From the IMG/VR virus record IMGVR_UViG_2703718818_000014, positions 1-11,010 of that record: a stretch of DNA of 11,010 bases, one strand, 5' to 3'. Shown piece by piece: positions 2,495-6,858 of the stretch. Below the pieces are notes generated by a model. The model saw nothing but the letters and a program-made list of their open reading frames with translations. It ran no database searches and was not told the origin of the DNA. The stretch's first letter is position 1; the number at the start of each line of letters is the position of its first letter. Source of the DNA: a virus. Its lineage: Duplodnaviria; Heunggongvirae; Uroviricota; Caudoviricetes. Both the position numbers and the translations under genes were made by a program.

Positions 2495-2722
2495 TCATCC
2501 TGGCGGTCGGTTTTTGCCGGATTTAAGCCGCCGTGGGTATTTATCGACAAAATCTTCAAGGGCAAATTTTTCTGGTGGCACTAAGCGCGGCGCTGGTGGT
2601 GGTATTTTTGTTCTGGTTAGTTCTTCCTCAAGTCTGGCGCAGGCTTCTGACTGCCTTTGCCGGATGATTTCATCATCTTGCGTTTGCGTGTCTTGTATTG
2701 GTGATAGTGTGTTGTTGGTCAT
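2495..2722 (-). CDS. Hypothetical protein (75 aa)
   Basis: ATG start with AGGG 9 nt upstream; hydrophilic non-repetitive sequence; lies downstream of RHH paralogue 2 on the same strand and upstream of the minus-strand terminator-like stem-loop A. No family recognised. Confidence 0.35.
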   Translation of the reverse strand: MTNNTLSPIQDTQTQDDEIIRQRQSEACARLEEELTRTKIPPPAPRLVPPEKFALEDFVDKYPRRLKSGKNRPPG

Positions 2723-2779
2723 GATACTGCCCTGTAAAGCAATGCGCCGGAGTACCTCACACCACGGCGCTGATAGTTT

Positions 2780-2971
2780 TTATCCTTTGGGTTCTATACC
2801 GCGCCGCTTTAGTTCAGTGCGCCCCAACTCTTTAAGCCAGTTGGCTAGGCTTATGCCGTCGCTCTGTGCTTCTTTATCGAATTGCTCTTTTAGCTCTGGA
2901 GAAATTCGCATTCTGAATTGTGGGGATTGCCCGTCCCCTTTAGGGCTTTTATCGCGTTTGATTGTTGACAA
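2780..2971 (-). CDS. Small ribbon-helix-helix (Arc/MetJ-like) DNA-binding protein, paralogue 2 (63 aa from TTG 2971; alternative ATG at 2911 gives 43 aa)
   Basis: Translation ...STIKRDKSPKGDGQSPQFRMRISPELKEQFDKEAQSDGISLANWLKELGRTELKRRGIEPKG, collinear with paralogue 1 including N-terminal (M)ST.K. AGGTGA lies 4 nt upstream of the TTG. Confidence 0.45.
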   Translation of the reverse strand: MSTIKRDKSPKGDGQSPQFRMRISPELKEQFDKEAQSDGISLANWLKELGRTELKRRGIEPKG

Positions 2972-2972
2972 G

Positions 2973-3013
2973 TGGTCACCTATTGAATTAGCCTTTCTAT
3001 TGTTAGGTGACCA
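2973..3013. promoter_or_regulatory. 10-bp inverted repeat, candidate operator (TGGTCACCTA ... TAGGTGACCA)
   Basis: Perfect 10-bp inverted repeat at 2973-2982 and 3004-3013 between the RHH paralogue 2 start and stem-loop B. The analogous position in module A has a different inverted repeat (TGTAATGT 2291-2298 / ACATTACA 2315-2322). Confidence 0.35.
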
Positions 3014-3042
3014 CCTTAACACAAGAGCACTTAAAAAAGCAA

Positions 3043-3075
3043 AGCCCCGCAAGTGTCATTACCACTCGCAGGGCT
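3043..3075. other. Conserved stem-loop B (paralogue of stem-loop A)
   Basis: AGCCC-c-GCAAGTG / CACTCGC-a-GGGCT. Same flanking sequence as stem-loop A; on the minus strand followed by TTTGCTTTTTT. Confidence 0.4.
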
Positions 3076-3105
3076 TCTAACCAACAACGTAAACTAGGAG
3101 CCGTT

Positions 3106-3663
3106 ATGGTTGCTGTAAATCATATACCACACCTTGTACACACACAAACGGCCTTTGTGTGGCGTTTTCTGGCCCTGAATATCGGAGAAAAAAACCAGTT
3201 GATCGCCAGTGTCGAAAATAGCTATGATTCCCGCGCACCTCATAAAACGGGTGCCGGGATTGGCGTCCTGGGCAAAACTGAAGCGCATAACACGCGCCCC
3301 GCGTGTTTTTTTGTGCCGCATAGTCACACCTTATCAATGGTGGGCTGTACGGGGGCGGAGCAATCCGCGCCGGTTTCTTCAGTGTCCGGTTACGCCAACC
3401 CTGTACAGTCCGCCACCAGCGAAATTGGCGTTTCCGGTGGCGGTTATCTTAACCACACTGAGGAGGCTGCCAACATGGCTACTATCCCTACCCTTGTACA
3501 TTCTCAAACCGCCTTTCTCTGGCGCTTTATCATCTTTGGCGCGTCAGAACATCAAATCATCCACGTAACCGCCTGGACGGAACGCGAAGCGCGTAACCGT
3601 TGCCCGTCAGGTTGTGTTGCTGTATTTGCCGCTCGTATTCGTCAGGGGTCACATCATGCGTAA
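3106..3663 (+). CDS. Tandem small-protein paralogue units B1 and B2 in one open frame (possible Icd-like proteins); B2 may initiate independently at 3475
   Basis: ATG 3106 with AGGAG 5 nt upstream. An internal ATG at 3475 has GAGGAGG 9 nt upstream and encodes MATIPTLVHSQTAFLWRFIIFGASEHQIIHVTAWTEREARNRCPSGCVAVFAARIRQG. B1 begins MVAVNHIPHLVHTQTAFVWRF..., and the frame stays open from 3106 to 3663 across an internal terminator-like hairpin. Family assignment is from memory of the motif only. Confidence 0.4.
   Translation: MVAVNHIPHLVHTQTAFVWRFLALNIGEKNQLIASVENSYDSRAPHKTGAGIGVLGKTEAHNTRPACFFVPHSHTLSMVGCTGAEQSAPVSSVSGYANPVQSATSEIGVSGGGYLNHTEEAANMATIPTLVHSQTAFLWRFIIFGASEHQIIHVTAWTEREARNRCPSGCVAVFAARIRQGSHHA
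3289..3312 (+). terminator. Intrinsic terminator / attenuator inside the B1-B2 leader
   Basis: Stem AACACGCG / CGCGTGTT with a short loop, followed by a T run (GTTTTTTTG). Confidence 0.5.
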
Positions 3664-3949
3664 AAACCGCTTGCAAAAAATTATCACGGGGCTGTATGCT
3701 TCCCCCGTCGCCCACATGGCGACCGGGTTTGACAGCCTGAATAAATTGGCGGACAGCCGCCCATATCCGATAAGCGGTTTTTTTGTGTCCGTAAACCTAC
3801 CCATACCCGCATTATGGCGGGGCGTAACGGGGGAGCCTTTGCGCTCGCTGGTTTCCCAATTTGCCAGTCTGTCAACCCTGTTACGTCTCGCCACCATGTT
3901 TGACAGCGTAGTAGCGAGACTCCTTAACATTAAATTGGGAGCCTTTCAC

Positions 3950-4123
3950 ATGGCTGTATCCGCACGCCCTTACTTTGTCTGGCGCTTTATGCAGTGCCAC
4001 CACAGCAACATTGATGTATTCACCGTTACCGCAGCCACTGAACGCGAAGCCCGCGCCCAGCTGCCGCACGCACATCTGATTCTTGTCGCCCGTATTCGTC
4101 AGGGGAAAACCTATGCACAATAA
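3950..4123 (+). CDS. Small-protein paralogue unit B3 (57 aa; possible Icd-like); frame is open upstream to ATG 3656
   Basis: ATG 3950 with GGGAG 8 nt upstream; MAVSARPYFVWRFMQCHHSNIDVFTVTAATEREARAQLPHAHLILVARIRQGKTYAQ shares F.WRF, TEREAR and ARIRQG with unit B2. The upstream in-frame extension (3656-3949) is homologous to the B1-B2 leader at nucleotide level but in a different reading frame, which argues it is non-coding. Confidence 0.45.
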   Translation: MAVSARPYFVWRFMQCHHSNIDVFTVTAATEREARAQLPHAHLILVARIRQGKTYAQ

Positions 4124-4373
4124 AACCACACCGGACGCAGCAGCCGCCGCGCTCACTACGCTGATGCATGCGCTGATTGATATTTCTGTTATTGCTGACA
4201 GGGCGCATAAGCACGCCACCAGTGAAACAGAATATGCTGGGGCTTTCGTTCCTCATTCGCTGGCGGTTATGCAACTTAGTGCGGATATGGCGCTGAATGA
4301 GGCCAAAGCCATCCTGATTGCTGATTGTGAAAATGGGGGGGGGTTATGCGTGATGATCGTTTTAATTCCCTGA
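4113..4373 (+). CDS. Hypothetical small protein (86 aa)
   Basis: First ATG of the frame, overlapping the stop of unit B3; first gene of a tightly packed run of small ORFs leading into the primase gene. Contains a G9 homopolymer near its 3' end. Confidence 0.4.
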   Translation: MHNKTTPDAAAAALTTLMHALIDISVIADRAHKHATSETEYAGAFVPHSLAVMQLSADMALNEAKAILIADCENGGGLCVMIVLIP

Positions 4374-4567
4374 AACAGGAATTTTCCGGCGTTCCTGATG
4401 ATGCGGTTGATGCGCTTTCGTTAATATCTGAAATTATGCGGGTGGCTTTTTTCTTTCTTTGCACTGATGAGCACAGAGATACAGGGCTAAATATTCTTGA
4501 TATTGCCGCTAACTATGCCGATTTCGTGACAGAAGCTGTTTTAAGAAAAACAACGGACGGGGATTAA
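4346..4567 (+). CDS. Hypothetical small protein (73 aa)
   Basis: ATG 4346 immediately after the G9 run, which doubles as its Shine-Dalgarno; overlaps the preceding ORF by 28 nt. Confidence 0.45.
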   Translation: MRDDRFNSLKQEFSGVPDDAVDALSLISEIMRVAFFFLCTDEHRDTGLNILDIAANYADFVTEAVLRKTTDGD

Positions 4568-4807: not shown

Positions 4808-5107
4808 ATGAAACTTAAATATTCTGGCTTAACTGCCAGTGGCAACACTCACCCTAAATTTACGCGCGGTGATATTTACCGCGACCAGTACGGCGGCACG
4901 GTAATGATTAAGGGCGTGGAAGAACGGCGTGTAACCTACCGCCGTGAAGGTTACGAATATGATTGCGTGATGCCTGTTTATCAGTTCCGGCGTGATTTTT
5001 CTCTGGTACAGACCGCGCCGCATAACGTGCCCACCAGCAACGCCAGGGCACGGGCAAACATCCAGAAGCTGAAAACCATGATTAACGGATTCAGGGGTAA
5101 AAAATGA
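4808..5107 (+). CDS. Hypothetical small protein (99 aa), translationally coupled to the primase gene
   Basis: ATG 4808 with GGAGA upstream; its stop overlaps the primase start in an ATGA arrangement. Resembles from memory small conserved proteins found beside primase genes in P4-like islands (unverified). Confidence 0.5.
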   Translation: MKLKYSGLTASGNTHPKFTRGDIYRDQYGGTVMIKGVEERRVTYRREGYEYDCVMPVYQFRRDFSLVQTAPHNVPTSNARARANIQKLKTMINGFRGKK

Positions 5108-6858
5108 AACTGGCACCGAACGTAAAACAGCAGTCACGCGGCATAAAACACAAAGGAACAGAAGTCATTATTTTTGCGGGTAGTGATGCCTGGGCACACG
5201 CGAAACAATGGCAGGAACATGATGCGCGTATGGCCGGAGATAATGAGCCTCCTGTGTGGCTTGGGGAGCAGCAGTTATCAGAGCTGGATAAGCTGCAAAT
5301 TGTGCCGGAAGGCAGAAAATCCGTGCGCATATTCAGGGCCGGATATCTTGCGCCAGTAATGATAAAGGCGATTGGCCAGAAGCTGGCGGCGGCAGGCGTA
5401 CAGGATGCAAATTTTTACCCTGATGGTATGCACGGTCAGAAGGTGGAGAACTGGCGCGAATATCTGGCCCGTGAGCGCCAGAATCTTTCTGATGGTCTGG
5501 TCATTGAGCTTCCGGTAAAGCAAAAGGCGCAACTTTCGCAGATGGCGGACAGTGAGCGCGCGCAGCTGCTTGCCGATCGCTTTGATGGCGTTTGCGTACA
5601 TCCTGAAAGTGAAATCGTTCACGTATGGCGCGGCGGGGTATGGTGTCCGGTCAGCACAATGGAGCTTAGCCGCGAAATGGTGGCGATCTATTCAGAGCAC
5701 AGGGCCACTTTCAGCAAGCGCGTAATCAATAACGCCGTGGAAGCGTTAAAAGTTATTGCCGAACCAATGGGCGAGCCGTCCGGCGATTTGCTGCCGTTCG
5801 CCAATGGTGCGCTTGACCTGAAAACGGGGGAATTTTCCCCGCACACGCCGGAGAACTGGATCACCACGCACAACGGCATTGAGTACACGCCACCAGCACC
5901 AGGGGAGAACATCCGCGATAACGCGCCAAACTTTCATAAATGGCTTGAGCACGCAGCCGGAAAAGACCCGCGCAAGATGATGCGTATATGTGCCGCGCTG
6001 TACATGATTATGGCGAACCGGTACGACTGGCAGATGTTTATTGAGGCCACCGGAGACGGCGGGAGCGGTAAAAGTACATTCACGCACATAGCCAGCCTTC
6101 TGGCAGGGAAACAGAACACGGTAAGCGCTGAAATGACGTCGCTTGATGATGCTGGTGGACGTGCGCAGGTTGTCGGGAGTCGTCTTATCGTCCTGGCTGA
6201 CCAGCCGAAATATACAGGCGAAGGAACGGGCATCAAGAAAATCACGGGCGGTGACCCCGTGGAAATTAACCCGAAATACGAAAAGCGTTTCACGGCTGTA
6301 ATCAGGGCGGTGGTGCTGGCGACCAACAATAACCCGATGATATTCACCGAACGGGCCGGAGGTGTGGCACGTCGTCGCGTGATTTTCCGTTTCGACAATA
6401 TCGTCAGTGAGGCCGAAAAAGACAGGGAGCTACCGGAAAAGATTGCGGCTGAAATCCCTGTCATTATCCGCCGATTGCTGGCGAACTTTACCGACCCTGA
6501 GAAGGCACGGGCTTTACTACTGGAACAGCGTGACGGTGATGAAGCACTGGCAATAAAGCAACAGACGGATCCGGTTATTGAGTTTTGCCAGTTCCTGAAT
6601 TTTCTGGAGGAAGCACGCGGCCTGATGATGGGCGGCGGTGGCGATTCAGTGAAGTACACGACCAGAAACAGCCTTTACCGCGTCTATCTGGCGTTTATGG
6701 CGTACGCAGGCAGGAGCAAACCGCTAAACGTAAATGACTTTGGCAAGGCTATGAAGCCAGCCGCGAAAGTTTACGGACATGAATATATTACGCGGAAAGT
6801 TAAAGGAGTAACGCAGACTAACGCAATAACAACAGACGATTGCGACGCGTTTTTATAA
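5104..6858 (+). CDS. Replication protein: P4-alpha-family primase/helicase C-terminal-type P-loop NTPase (SF3/D5-like), 584 aa
   Basis: Walker A GDGGSGKST, Walker B-like RLIVLADQP and SF3 motif C VVLATNNNP in the C-terminal half; sits directly upstream of an iteron array. Confidence 0.85.
   Translation: MKLAPNVKQQSRGIKHKGTEVIIFAGSDAWAHAKQWQEHDARMAGDNEPPVWLGEQQLSELDKLQIVPEGRKSVRIFRAGYLAPVMIKAIGQKLAAAGVQDANFYPDGMHGQKVENWREYLARERQNLSDGLVIELPVKQKAQLSQMADSERAQLLADRFDGVCVHPESEIVHVWRGGVWCPVSTMELSREMVAIYSEHRATFSKRVINNAVEALKVIAEPMGEPSGDLLPFANGALDLKTGEFSPHTPENWITTHNGIEYTPPAPGENIRDNAPNFHKWLEHAAGKDPRKMMRICAALYMIMANRYDWQMFIEATGDGGSGKSTFTHIASLLAGKQNTVSAEMTSLDDAGGRAQVVGSRLIVLADQPKYTGEGTGIKKITGGDPVEINPKYEKRFTAVIRAVVLATNNNPMIFTERAGGVARRRVIFRFDNIVSEAEKDRELPEKIAAEIPVIIRRLLANFTDPEKARALLLEQRDGDEALAIKQQTDPVIEFCQFLNFLEEARGLMMGGGGDSVKYTTRNSLYRVYLAFMAYAGRSKPLNVNDFGKAMKPAAKVYGHEYITRKVKGVTQTNAITTDDCDAFL

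Follow-up and report, generated by a model that had tools for sequence, protein, structure and literature searches.

The window (the whole stretch of DNA analyzed, 11,010 nucleotides) belongs to a PICI/P4-like integrated phage satellite, with a gene content that includes an integrase, Arc-like repressors, a primase, SSB, lambda-type capsid E/D and Nu1. Within the early operon of this element, positions 3106-4123 carry two cassettes with the same order of parts: a predicted internal promoter, a1/b1 hairpins, a T7 run, a C4/CI RNA, a2/b2 targets and an Icd/Kil-like ORF (Table 1). We scanned the region with Rfam covariance models and found two matches to C4, one to isrK and one to c4-a1b1, all at or above the gathering score. 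The same models matched the CI and seqA RNAs of P4 and the C4 of a P1-like phage. Immediately downstream, the ORF at 4113..4373 opens a tightly packed run of genes that extends to DUF4222 (4808-5107) and a D5_N/DUF5906 primase (5104-6858). One downstream gene is split by a G8 run.

Table 1. Features of the two cassettes and of the reading frames around them, in window positions.
Feature	Position	Strand	Details
Predicted sigma-70 promoter, cassette 1	3199..3228	+	TTGATC-18-TATGAT; putative function
isrK/seqA-like leader RNA	3235..3311	+	RF01394, 66 bits (gathering 50); two hairpins, then intrinsic terminator
a1, cassette 1	3260-3266	+	UUGGCGU, in isrK hairpin-2 loop
b1, cassette 1	3277-3283	+	ACUGAAG, just 3' of isrK hairpin 2
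isrK intrinsic terminator	3289-3307 + T7 (to 3312)	+	8-bp GC-rich stem, then U7
C4/CI antisense RNA, copy 1 (C4#1)	3333..3420	+	RF01695, 77.6 bits (gathering 45); model positions 1-87 of 87; P4/lambdoid type
b' address of C4#1	3377-3385	+	CUUCAGUGU, hairpin-2 loop
a' address of C4#1	3392-3398	+	ACGCCAA, 3' junction
a2 of C4#1	3425-3431	+	UUGGCGU (downstream target block 3425..3466)
b2 of C4#1	3455-3461	+	ACACUGA
Weak predicted promoter, cassette 2	3671..3700	+	TTGCAA-18-TATGCT; putative, by homology to annotated P1 P1c4
c4-a1b1 element, cassette 2	3694..3784	+	RF03163 match 3694-3743, 46.8 bits (gathering 46.7, barely above)
c4-a1b1 hairpins, cassette 2	3707-3739	+	Two hairpins, a1 in second loop, b1 immediately 3'
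a1, cassette 2	3729-3735	+	UUGACAG
b1, cassette 2	3743-3749	+	AAAUUGG
T7 run, cassette 2	3778-3784	+	In c4-a1b1 element, after a GGCGG/CCGCC hairpin and then a weak stem
C4 antisense RNA, copy 2 (C4#2)	3810..3898	+	RF01695, 74.0 bits (gathering 45); model positions 1-87 of 87; P1/P7/D6 type
b' address of C4#2	3854-3862	+	UCCCAAUUU
a' address of C4#2	3869-3875	+	CUGUCAA, identical to P1 a'
a2 of C4#2	3900-3906	+	UUGACAG
b2 of C4#2	3932-3940	+	AAAUUGGGA, covers unit 3 Shine-Dalgarno GGGAG
Unit 2, Icd/Kil-like ORF	3475..3663	+	62 aa; NF033153, 57.3 bits; in frame, 3' end of long ORF 1
Unit 3, Icd/Kil-like ORF	3950..4123	+	57 aa; NF033153, 54.5 bits; in frame, 3' end of long ORF 2
Long ORF 1, eta-like	3106..3663	+	185 aa; unit 1 (remnant), then isrK/C4#1 translation, then unit 2 in frame
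Long ORF 2, eta-like	3656..4123	+	155 aa; spans a1b1 and C4#2, with unit 3 in frame at end
Next operon ORF	4113..4373	+	ATG overlaps unit 3 stop; AGGGG 7 nt upstream

The predicted promoter of cassette 1 ends 7 nt before the 5' end of isrK, a position that corresponds to that of P_LE in P4. The promoter of cassette 2 is weaker, scoring 8/12 and falling below the threshold of the scan; its homolog P1c4 reads TTGACC-17-TATAGT. The hairpins of cassette 2 agree with the description of the c4-a1b1 motif by Weinberg et al., in which a1 lies in the second of two hairpin loops and b1 immediately 3' of it. A preliminary description of this region, made from the sequence alone, had reported T-run hairpins in the leaders and suggested, from the first of them, attenuation between units. 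The strong hairpin with T7 at 3289-3312 is indeed present and is the isrK/seqA terminator, but the predicted stem before the second T run is only 3-4 bp, and the leaders are better described as genes for trans-acting antisense RNAs together with their targets. That the leaders are conserved as RNA and not as protein, also proposed there, is borne out by the Rfam matches.

The hallmark of the C4 family is a stable RNA of ~77 nt, released by processing (RNase P), that acts as a repressor in trans. Aligned to the annotated C4 of P1, the mature RNAs would span approximately 3339-3417 (C4#1) and 3816-3895 (C4#2). In the minimum-free-energy folds of both copies, a long closing stem encloses two hairpins, and across 19 sequences the C4 consensus has 24 pairs, 12 of them with compensatory changes, and one broken cell.

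To every C4 loop and junction there is a perfect complement of 7-9 nt at collinear upstream and downstream positions, making eight sites. The address segments differ between the two C4 copies, and each copy matches its own four targets. Duplex energies were calculated for the address segments alone, as energies that include the flanking stems are uninformative because the conserved stems pair together. For pairing with the downstream targets they came to −15.0 kcal/mol (b'1:b2#1) and −10.0 kcal/mol (a'1:a2#1) in cassette 1, and to −11.3 kcal/mol (b'2:b2#2) and −8.7 kcal/mol (a'2:a2#2) in cassette 2. The pairing at b2 of cassette 1 extends into GAGGAGG (3460-3466), the Shine-Dalgarno sequence of unit 2. 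The cognate duplex was the strongest in 7/8 cases. One non-cognate duplex, that of a' of C4#1 with the b1 region of cassette 2, came to −9.4 kcal/mol. With their different addresses, the two C4 RNAs would form locks that are largely independent of each other, though this non-cognate duplex means that they may not be fully so.

The addresses and their targets also change together. We found 22 distinct address combinations among relatives, 21 of which retain at least 6 bp at all four sites and at fixed offsets. In the closest relative (L001), a' of cassette 2 differs from that of the window, and a1 and a2 have both changed to match. The order and spacing of the sites agree with the GenBank annotation of P1 (a1, b1, C4, a2, b2, icd, ant). 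Together, two copies of a C4 repressor with their targets, each before a Kil/Icd-like toxin gene, amount to a doubled form of a known RNA switch of satellite replication. We consider it likely that 3106-4123 is a pair of P4/P1-type antisense-RNA immunity cassettes in series, heading the replication operon of the satellite.

We infer by homology how each step of such a two-cassette system would operate. In the immune state, by analogy with P1 and P4, the internal promoter of each cassette would give rise to an untranslated leader transcript. Most transcripts of cassette 1 would end at the isrK terminator, and those that read through would be processed to a stable C4/CI RNA of ~80 nt. The C4 RNA would then pair, via the exposed b' in the hairpin-2 loop and a' at the 3' junction, with a1/b1 upstream and a2/b2 downstream. 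Pairing at b2 would cover the Shine-Dalgarno sequence of the Kil/Icd-like ORF and block its translation, and the resulting polarity or termination would shut off the coupled downstream genes up to the primase.

A different, or additional, role for the first leader would be activation of the IsrK type, in which the RNA of 3235-3311 acts in trans to remodel the read-through transcript or to titrate C4#1, and so turns on translation of the small ORF that follows, together with the genes coupled to it. Such a mechanism has been demonstrated at the isrK-orf45-anrP locus of Gifsy-1, in a study that also notes the structural homology of IsrK to P4 seqA (PMC4825925). In the window, the isrK match scores 66 bits with its strong terminator intact, and the predicted fold of the unit 2 leader sequesters both the a2 site and the Shine-Dalgarno sequence (z = −2.7). 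Competition of a1/b1 with a2/b2 for C4, a proposal relayed by Weinberg et al., would point the same way. Activation of this kind is compatible with C4 repression and does not exclude it, and cassette 2 lacks a strong terminator, so that a discrete short a1b1 RNA is doubtful there. We regard it as somewhat unlikely that IsrK-type activation replaces or supplements the repression by C4 set out above.

We then considered the proteins. The region had been described as holding three related small-protein units, starting at 3106, 3475 and 3950, that share the pattern F.WRF...TEREAR...ARIRQG and belong to an Icd-like family. All three ORF starts are present. Units 2 and 3 are paralogs with 42% identity (E = 5e-11); they carry the pattern and match the HMM for host cell division inhibitor Icd-like proteins (NF033153, cut-off 25 bits), as do P1 Icd and, at its C-terminus, the old P4 “cI” ORF. 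The PGAP annotation of relatives has the same 189-nt CDS as unit 2. Unit 1 is another matter: it resembles units 2 and 3 over its first ~27 residues only (56% identity, E = 2e-09), and it has neither TEREAR nor ARIRQG and no stop codon of its own, its frame continuing to 3663. The NF033153 search returned no Icd-like match for unit 1, so it lacks this family feature. Up to ~3189, the unit 1 region is 97-98% identical to intact Icd-like genes of other islands. Judging from these comparisons, unit 1 is what remains of the 5' end of an Icd-like gene, 28 codons that now serve as the N-terminus of the 185-aa ORF. Units 2 and 3 may inhibit cell division or kill the host, effects known from how P1 Icd is annotated and from P4 Kil (PMC10111431).

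Two further statements about these units hold. The leaders of units 2 and 3 are homologous and collinear as DNA, with the homologous bases in different reading frames: the ATG lies 142 nt from the start of C4 in cassette 1 and 140 nt from it in cassette 2, and the long-frame product of cassette 1 has a Phage_ASH match while that of cassette 2 has none. The codons for ARIRQG, for their part, double as the Shine-Dalgarno sequence of the next gene, with CGTATTCGTCAGGGG located 7 nt before the ATGs at 3656 and 4113, each of which overlaps the preceding stop.

The long ORFs require closer attention. Long ORF 1, which shares its frame with the open frame 3007..3663, is preceded by the Shine-Dalgarno sequence TAGGAG (3095-3100). 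Its residues 40-133 match Pfam PF10554 Phage_ASH (63.3 bits, gathering 26) and are the translation of isrK and C4#1; phrog_29966 matches it end to end (368 bits). The Pfam search found no Phage_ASH match in long ORF 2. This second ORF starts at an ATG that overlaps the unit 2 stop (ATGCGTAA), an overlap kept in 14/14 type-2 cassettes. PGAP annotates it as a 465-nt Icd-like CDS in one relative (L002) and as “frameshifted” in two others (L001 and L088). Neither a promoter scan nor inspection by eye revealed a convincing sigma-70 promoter upstream of 3106.

Of 36 distinct variants, 34 have no stop in the frame that is in phase with the short ORF, against 0-9 stops in the other two frames; these variants are closely related and parts of the region have two of their three frames open, so this conservation of frame is suggestive and not decisive. 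In the window itself the in-phase frame has 0 stops, including the stretch from 3106 to 3475, and the other frames have 3-8. Type-2 cassettes of different length preserve the frame in two distinct ways. P1 and a P1-like phage, where the upstream ORF is absent, have 2 in-phase stops each. The overlapping stop and start codons would fit translational coupling, as annotated for P1 icd-ant. The long read-through frames (3007..3663 and 3614..4123) had been taken as untranslated, which is probably wrong given the open frames, the conserved ATG and the precedent of P4 eta/kil: according to PMC10111431 (citing Forti et al. 1999), kil is nested in the same frame within eta, whose translation prevents termination and overrides immunity. 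In the induced state, by analogy with P4, transcripts from further upstream would be translated from the ATG at 3106. Ribosomes would cross isrK and C4#1 as far as the stop at 3663, restart at the overlapping ATG at 3656, and cross a1b1 and C4#2 as far as the stop at 4123, with a further restart at 4113. Translation would mask the target sites and prevent RNA folding and termination, and both locks would thus be bypassed together. The open frames and overlapping stop/start codons lend indirect support to the idea that translation of the long ORFs prevents immunity-specific termination.

We weighed this against an array of three small paralogous Icd-like genes with cis-acting attenuator leaders, in which the short ORFs alone are translated and the long frames are accidental. 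In its favor, units 2 and 3 are each a genuine Icd-like ORF preceded by a Shine-Dalgarno sequence of its own, the two cassettes show no conservation of the peptide that their RNA genes would encode, PGAP flags long ORF 2 as frameshifted in the two relatives named above, and P1 has only the short icd gene. Such an array is nevertheless improbable, as unit 1 is a 28-codon remnant without a stop of its own, the leaders match Rfam C4 genes with covarying targets in trans, the in-phase frames are open and their overlapping ATG conserved, and P4 eta is translated and functional (PMC10111431).

The closest counterparts of the two cassettes are found in different phages. In the P4 immunity region the order is P_LE - seqA - CI RNA - seqC - kil nested in eta - eps ... 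alpha primase, and its immunity factor is an RNA (PMC10111431, PMC4825925). Like the window, P4 has an Icd-like ORF (kil, 65 aa) in frame within a longer ORF that spans CI, the C4-start-to-ATG distance of cassette 1 (142 nt), an internal promoter within the long ORF (PMC10111431) and a position at the head of an operon ending in a primase. This nesting is found twice in the window: long ORF 1 holds the predicted promoter, isrK, C4#1 and unit 2, and long ORF 2 holds a1b1, C4#2 and unit 3. Unlike P4, the window has two cassettes in series, the second of P1 lineage, its primase is of the D5_N/DUF5906 type and the island has lambda-type capsid genes. Long ORF 1 also departs from eta in starting with an Icd-like stump and in being neither adjacent nor coupled to an alpA homolog; an AlpA-like ORF (1739-1945) lies 1.1 kb upstream, with two minus-strand Arc-like genes between.

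Cassette 2 instead resembles the immI operon of P1 and P7 (P1c4/P2c4 - a1 b1 - C4 - a2 b2 - icd - ant1/ant2). It is 79-82% identical to the c4 regions of P1, P7 and D6, and shares with P1 an identical a' and identical a1/a2 sites, the order of a1, b1, a2 and b2, a b2-to-ATG distance of 18 nt and an Icd-like ORF that overlaps the next gene. It differs from P1 in its b' address, in its downstream cargo (replication genes, where P1 has an antirepressor) and in lying inside an open long ORF with apparent translational coupling, where P1 has in-phase stops. A third relative is the Salmonella Gifsy-1 isrK-orf45-anrP locus, which likewise has an isrK-type leader with a partly read-through intrinsic terminator, a processed RNA downstream (STnc1160) and a small ORF translationally coupled to the next gene (PMC4825925). 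Unlike the window, Gifsy-1 has a single cassette and an antirepressor-like cargo protein, its short RNA has a demonstrated activating effect on translation in trans, and a role for its C4-like RNA is not established in that study (PMC4825925).

The number of cassettes in relatives of the window is 0, 1 or 2, and the breakpoints, at ~3189/3190, ~3649 and ~4087, are sharp. Homology to islands with a single icd gene stops at ~3189. Comparison among these relatives shows that recombination placed the cassettes in a type of island whose first gene is otherwise a single Icd-like one, with Icd-like genes providing the homology and unit 1 as the leftover 5' stump. We ruled out a simple local tandem duplication because the lineages differ, cassette 1 being P4/lambdoid-like and cassette 2 P1-like. 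The arrangement icd-C4-icd was found in 111/5426 complete E. coli genomes (about 2%) and in about 20 of 80 IMG/VR loci, carrying a wide variety of addresses. The exact 58-nt type-2 scaffold pattern had no match in a set of one genome per species. Three IMG/VR loci on contigs of ~50 kb with the same C4#1 address (L015, L024 and L025) had pointed to a full-size helper phage that has the address of cassette 1; we dropped this candidate, as BLAST placed all three in the same satellite family and the best matches among curated phage genomes were only ~77% identical.

A decaying, non-functional scar of recombination between Icd-like genes would also account for a region that is clearly mosaic, with sharp breakpoints, a truncated unit 1 and a downstream gene split by the G8 run. 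We judge this very unlikely in view of the perfect complementarity between effector and target at all eight sites, the intact C4 folds, the open frames and the recurrence of icd-C4-icd in E. coli genomes and IMG/VR loci. Very unlikely, too, is that the conserved feature is the protein (an “Ash family”/Bro-network protein and a long Icd-like protein), with nucleotide conservation as mere coding conservation: the Phage_ASH and phrog_29966 matches and the RefSeq annotation of an “ash family protein” and a 465-nt Icd-like CDS favor it, but the two cassettes read the same bases in different frames, with no Ash match for cassette 2, changes in the C4 stems compensate one another at the level of RNA, address segments vary in concert with target sites that are not adjacent to them, P1 carries the RNA yet has in-phase stops, and P4 immunity is known to be an RNA (PMC10111431, PMC4825925).

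The RNA switch itself is already known, its component parts and mechanism being textbook P1 and P4 biology. What is new is the two-cassette, mixed-lineage arrangement, a modest variant that does not overturn current understanding. We tentatively suggest, as a reading that we hold to be possible and somewhat more doubtful than not, that the two locks, one P4/lambdoid-type and one P1-type, sit on one stop/start-coupled chain of ORFs with open frames and unconstrained peptide, so that a single upstream translation event carries ribosomes over both RNA genes and overrides both locks. If true, an island in its resting state would have immunity against competing satellites or phages of two classes, and the hypervariable a'/b' segments, of which two scaffolds with almost no variation carry at least 22 combinations, would form an evolved, natural library of independent RNA repressors under diversifying selection.

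For annotation, the RefSeq labels of this region (“ash family protein (pseudo),” “Icd-like” and “Icd-like, frameshifted”) resolve into a coherent regulatory module, and what Pfam Phage_ASH and several PHROG families model is, for the most part, translated RNA genes. Address segments that covary with their targets supply a ready-made collection of natural RNA repressor/target pairs that differ in address, and the cassettes offer a testable case of translation as an antitermination relay. For the biology of these elements, the arrangement indicates that P4/P1-style RNA immunity cassettes can be stacked and that some PICI-like satellites gate their replication by such immunity, layered on an island that is otherwise of the protein-repressor type.

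The leaders before the second and third of three small ORFs (units 1, 2 and 3, all present with starts at 3106, 3475 and 3950, as claimed) are, judged by sequence comparison, known RNA genes. The preliminary description had proposed that the two leaders are homologous and conserved as nucleotides; they are indeed collinear, and conservation as RNA was borne out by four known elements at Rfam gathering thresholds, the same models matching the P4 seqA region, P4 CI RNA and the C4 of a P1-like phage. Cassette 1 comprises isrK, the first C4 copy (C4#1) and unit 2, and cassette 2 comprises c4-a1b1, C4#2 and unit 3. The C4 fold showed compensatory changes in 12 of 24 pairs (19 sequences). Cassette 2 shared 79-82% identity with the P1, P7 and D6 c4 regions, and cassette 1 resembled versions in P4, SfV, Stx and other lambdoid phages. 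The two cassettes are thus of different lineages, which rules out simple local duplication as the source of the array.

Features of the satellite and its two RNA cassettes (window coordinates)
Feature	Position	Detail
Tyrosine integrase	1-1242	
AlpA-like helix-turn-helix protein	1739-1945	
Small Arc/YlcI-YnfO-like ribbon-helix-helix gene	2096-2275	minus strand
Its paralog	2780-2923	minus strand
Array of units 1-3	3106-4123	between minus-strand Arc-like genes and small ORFs
Long ORF 1	3106-3663	185 aa; contains predicted promoter (3199-3228), isrK, C4#1, unit 2
isrK	3235-3311	66 bits; gathering score 50 (Rfam)
a1, cassette 1	3260-3266	isrK hairpin-2 loop
b1, cassette 1	3277-3283	
C4 antisense RNA copy 1	3333-3420	77.6 bits; gathering score 45 (Rfam)
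b', cassette 1	3377-3385	CUUCAGUGU
a', cassette 1	3392-3398	ACGCCAA
a2, cassette 1	3425-3431	
b2, cassette 1	3455-3461	continues into GAGGAGG Shine-Dalgarno sequence
Long ORF 2	3656-4123	155 aa; contains weaker predicted promoter, a1b1, C4#2, unit 3
c4-a1b1	3694-3743	46.8 bits; gathering score 46.7 (Rfam)
a1, cassette 2	3729-3735	
b1, cassette 2	3743-3749	
C4 antisense RNA copy 2	3810-3898	74.0 bits; gathering score 45 (Rfam)
b', cassette 2	3854-3862	UCCCAAUUU
a', cassette 2	3869-3875	CUGUCAA
a2, cassette 2	3900-3906	
b2, cassette 2	3932-3940	covers GGGAG Shine-Dalgarno sequence
Small ORFs and DUF4222 gene		between the array and the primase
D5_N/DUF5906 primase	5104-6858	
SSB		listed after primase
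Lambda-type major capsid E, decoration protein D, Nu1-type small terminase		after SSB

The three units had been described as encoding related, possibly Icd-like, proteins. Units 2 and 3 are paralogous, at 42% identity (E = 5e-11), and an HMM check upheld the assignment for both, with matches to NCBIfam NF033153 ("host cell division inhibitor Icd-like protein") at 57.3 and 54.5 bits, respectively (cut-off 25). Unit 1 is not a like member: it resembles the other two only over its first ~27 residues, profile searches found no family match for it, and the first stop codon in its frame is at 3663.

Each C4 exposes two address segments, the hairpin-2 loop (b') and the 3' junction (a'); these names, and those of the upstream (a1, b1) and downstream (a2, b2) targets, follow P1 nomenclature (P1 GenBank record; Weinberg et al.). 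The a' of P1 is identical to that of cassette 2. Since about five single 7-mers per C4 are expected by chance in the interval, the argument for these targets rests on covariation. A C4 profile search across 80 IMG/VR loci with Icd-like relatives yielded two scaffolds with almost no variation, bearing 22 distinct scaffold/b'/a' combinations. Comparison of these established that addresses and targets covary: 21 of the 22 had complementarity of at least 6 bp at all four sites at fixed offsets, the lone exception being P4, in which the search window used did not reach the upstream site. In the closest relative (L001), the cassette 2 a' is CUGCUAA, unlike that of the window, and a1 and a2 are both changed to match. 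Duplex energies of the address segments alone favoured cognate pairs. The standout non-cognate duplex, C4#1 a' with the b1#2 region (-9.4 kcal/mol), and a possible pairing of C4#2 b' with a2#1 (-5.3 kcal/mol) would arise because the 9-mer AAAUUGGCG occurs at both 3422-3430 (a2 region, cassette 1) and 3743-3751 (b1 region, cassette 2); as other double-cassette relatives lack the shared 9-mer, it is probably a coincidence of alleles. A minus-strand promoter-like site (TTGGCA-16-TAAGAT, 3446-3473) lies opposite the a2/b2 sites and Shine-Dalgarno sequence of unit 2, in antisense orientation.

The relatives also reveal a mosaic origin. Islands of the L005 and L006 type (L006 is from an O157:H7 strain) carry a single Icd-like gene first in the operon, without C4. 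The 5' 28 codons and upstream region of this gene are 97-98% identical to window 2717-3189, and its body aligns with either unit 2 (85%) or the final part of unit 3 (91%). Cassette 1 alone is present in L018 and L022-L025 (window 3071-3649 joined to 4087); cassette 2 alone, after an Icd-like gene, in the L041 type and L088; and both in L001, L002, L007, L009-L013, L027 and L036. Breakpoints recur at ~3189/3190, ~3649 and ~4087, so recombination inside Icd-like genes moves the cassettes and has left unit 1 as a stump. The icd-to-a1b1-to-C4-to-icd junction was found in 111 of 5426 complete E. coli genomes (coverage at least 80%).

Homologous C4 bases do fall in different reading frames, as had been noted, with 142 nt from C4 to ATG in cassette 1 and 140 nt in cassette 2. 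Because of this, and because the cassette 2 frame has no Phage_ASH similarity, the peptide across the RNA genes is not the conserved feature. To this extent the case made against translation of the long frames is correct, but the open frame itself is conserved. Reading in phase with the ATG of the downstream Icd-like ORF meets no stop over the whole RNA cassette in 34 of 36 distinct variants, which are related by descent, while the other two frames have 0-9 stops, two frames being open over parts of the region. Within the window the in-phase frame has no stops in either cassette; the others have 8 and 3 (cassette 1) and 6 and 6 (cassette 2). The overlap of ATG 3656 with the unit 2 stop (ATGCGTAA) is kept in 14/14 type-2 cassettes, and type-2 variants whose loop lacks 1 nt restore the frame by gaining 1 nt at either of two places. 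In P1 and a P1-like phage the cassette has no ORF upstream of it, and each of them has two in-phase stops. Taken on these comparisons, translation of the long frames is probable. The preliminary description was partly confirmed in its observation and partly supported in its interpretation.

Pfam PF10554 (Phage_ASH) matches window 3223-3504, corresponding to residues 40-133 of ORF 3106-3663, a region labelled "ash family protein" (pseudo) in RefSeq. Phage_ASH, phrog_29966, phrog_3960, phrog_821 and others all align with what the isrK/seqA and C4/CI RNA genes encode when translated, so these families are for the most part models of RNA genes in a single reading frame. The same matches occur in P4 (8168-8584, minus strand), where the old "cI gene product" ORF combines Phage_ASH with an Icd-like part. 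In RefSeq, long Icd-like coding sequences of L001 (4623-5087) and L088 (1597-2061) are tagged "frameshifted" by PGAP though the frame is open, likely reflecting RNA-cassette length variants (+1/-1) that read ~90 nt in another frame than the reference protein.

The window is an integrated phage satellite. Its two Arc/YlcI-YnfO-like genes share a C-terminal ...RRGIEPKG and are likely the island's protein repressors, so protein and RNA control appear to be combined. A perfect 11-bp inverted repeat (GTGGTCACCTA ... TAGGTGACCAC, 2972-2982/3004-3014) between the divergent Arc-like gene and ATG 3106 resembles an operator at which the island's protein repressor would bind; no good sigma-70 promoter turned up next to it. 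The 5' untranslated stretch preceding 3106 holds a minus-strand 15-bp hairpin followed by a T-run (3041-3077), resembling a terminator of leftward transcripts. This feature overlaps the TTG at which ORF 2780..3052 begins in the mechanical listing; the real Arc-like gene probably begins at an ATG near 2923. Terminator-like sites numbered 7 in a scan of 2700-4500, against 2.6 expected from shuffles. Downstream, ORFs 4113-4373 and 4346-4567 match the N- and C-terminal halves of phrog_2512 (positions 1-77 and 78-146), a single 435-nt gene in L001 and L088; the frameshift at a G8 run (4335-4342) may be a real split, may mark a tract prone to slippage or may be an error of sequencing.

The system belongs with the well-known RNA immunity of P4 and of the P1 immI operon, already noted in Gram-negative PICIs (PMC10111431). 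In P4, a 65-aa Icd-like ORF lies in frame inside a longer frame that spans CI, with 152 codons open upstream. According to the passages of PMC10111431 that cite Forti et al. 1999, a constitutive promoter lies inside eta and its transcript is terminated via CI and seqA RNA interactions; Kil, a truncated form, is translated on read-through; and only transcription from an upstream promoter gives full-length Eta, whose translation prevents termination. This eta/kil model fits the window twice, in ORF 3106-3663 and ORF 3656-4123, each with its RNA genes nested inside. The P1 promoter P1c4 is homologous to the weaker predicted promoter of the second. Following P1 and P4, the internal promoters would be constitutive, the leaders would be processed to ~80-nt C4 RNAs, repression would act by Shine-Dalgarno occlusion at b2 plus termination or polarity, and translation of the long ORFs would override immunity. 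More speculatively, the short isrK RNA may also be a trans-activator or C4 sponge, as at Gifsy-1 (PMC4825925), and two locks may serve for tighter silencing, for immunity against two classes of heteroimmune competitor, or for both.

Our literature search found no description of the stacked arrangement, with its two lineages, two addresses and coupled open frames. It recurs in E. coli, and its parts are routinely annotated piecemeal.
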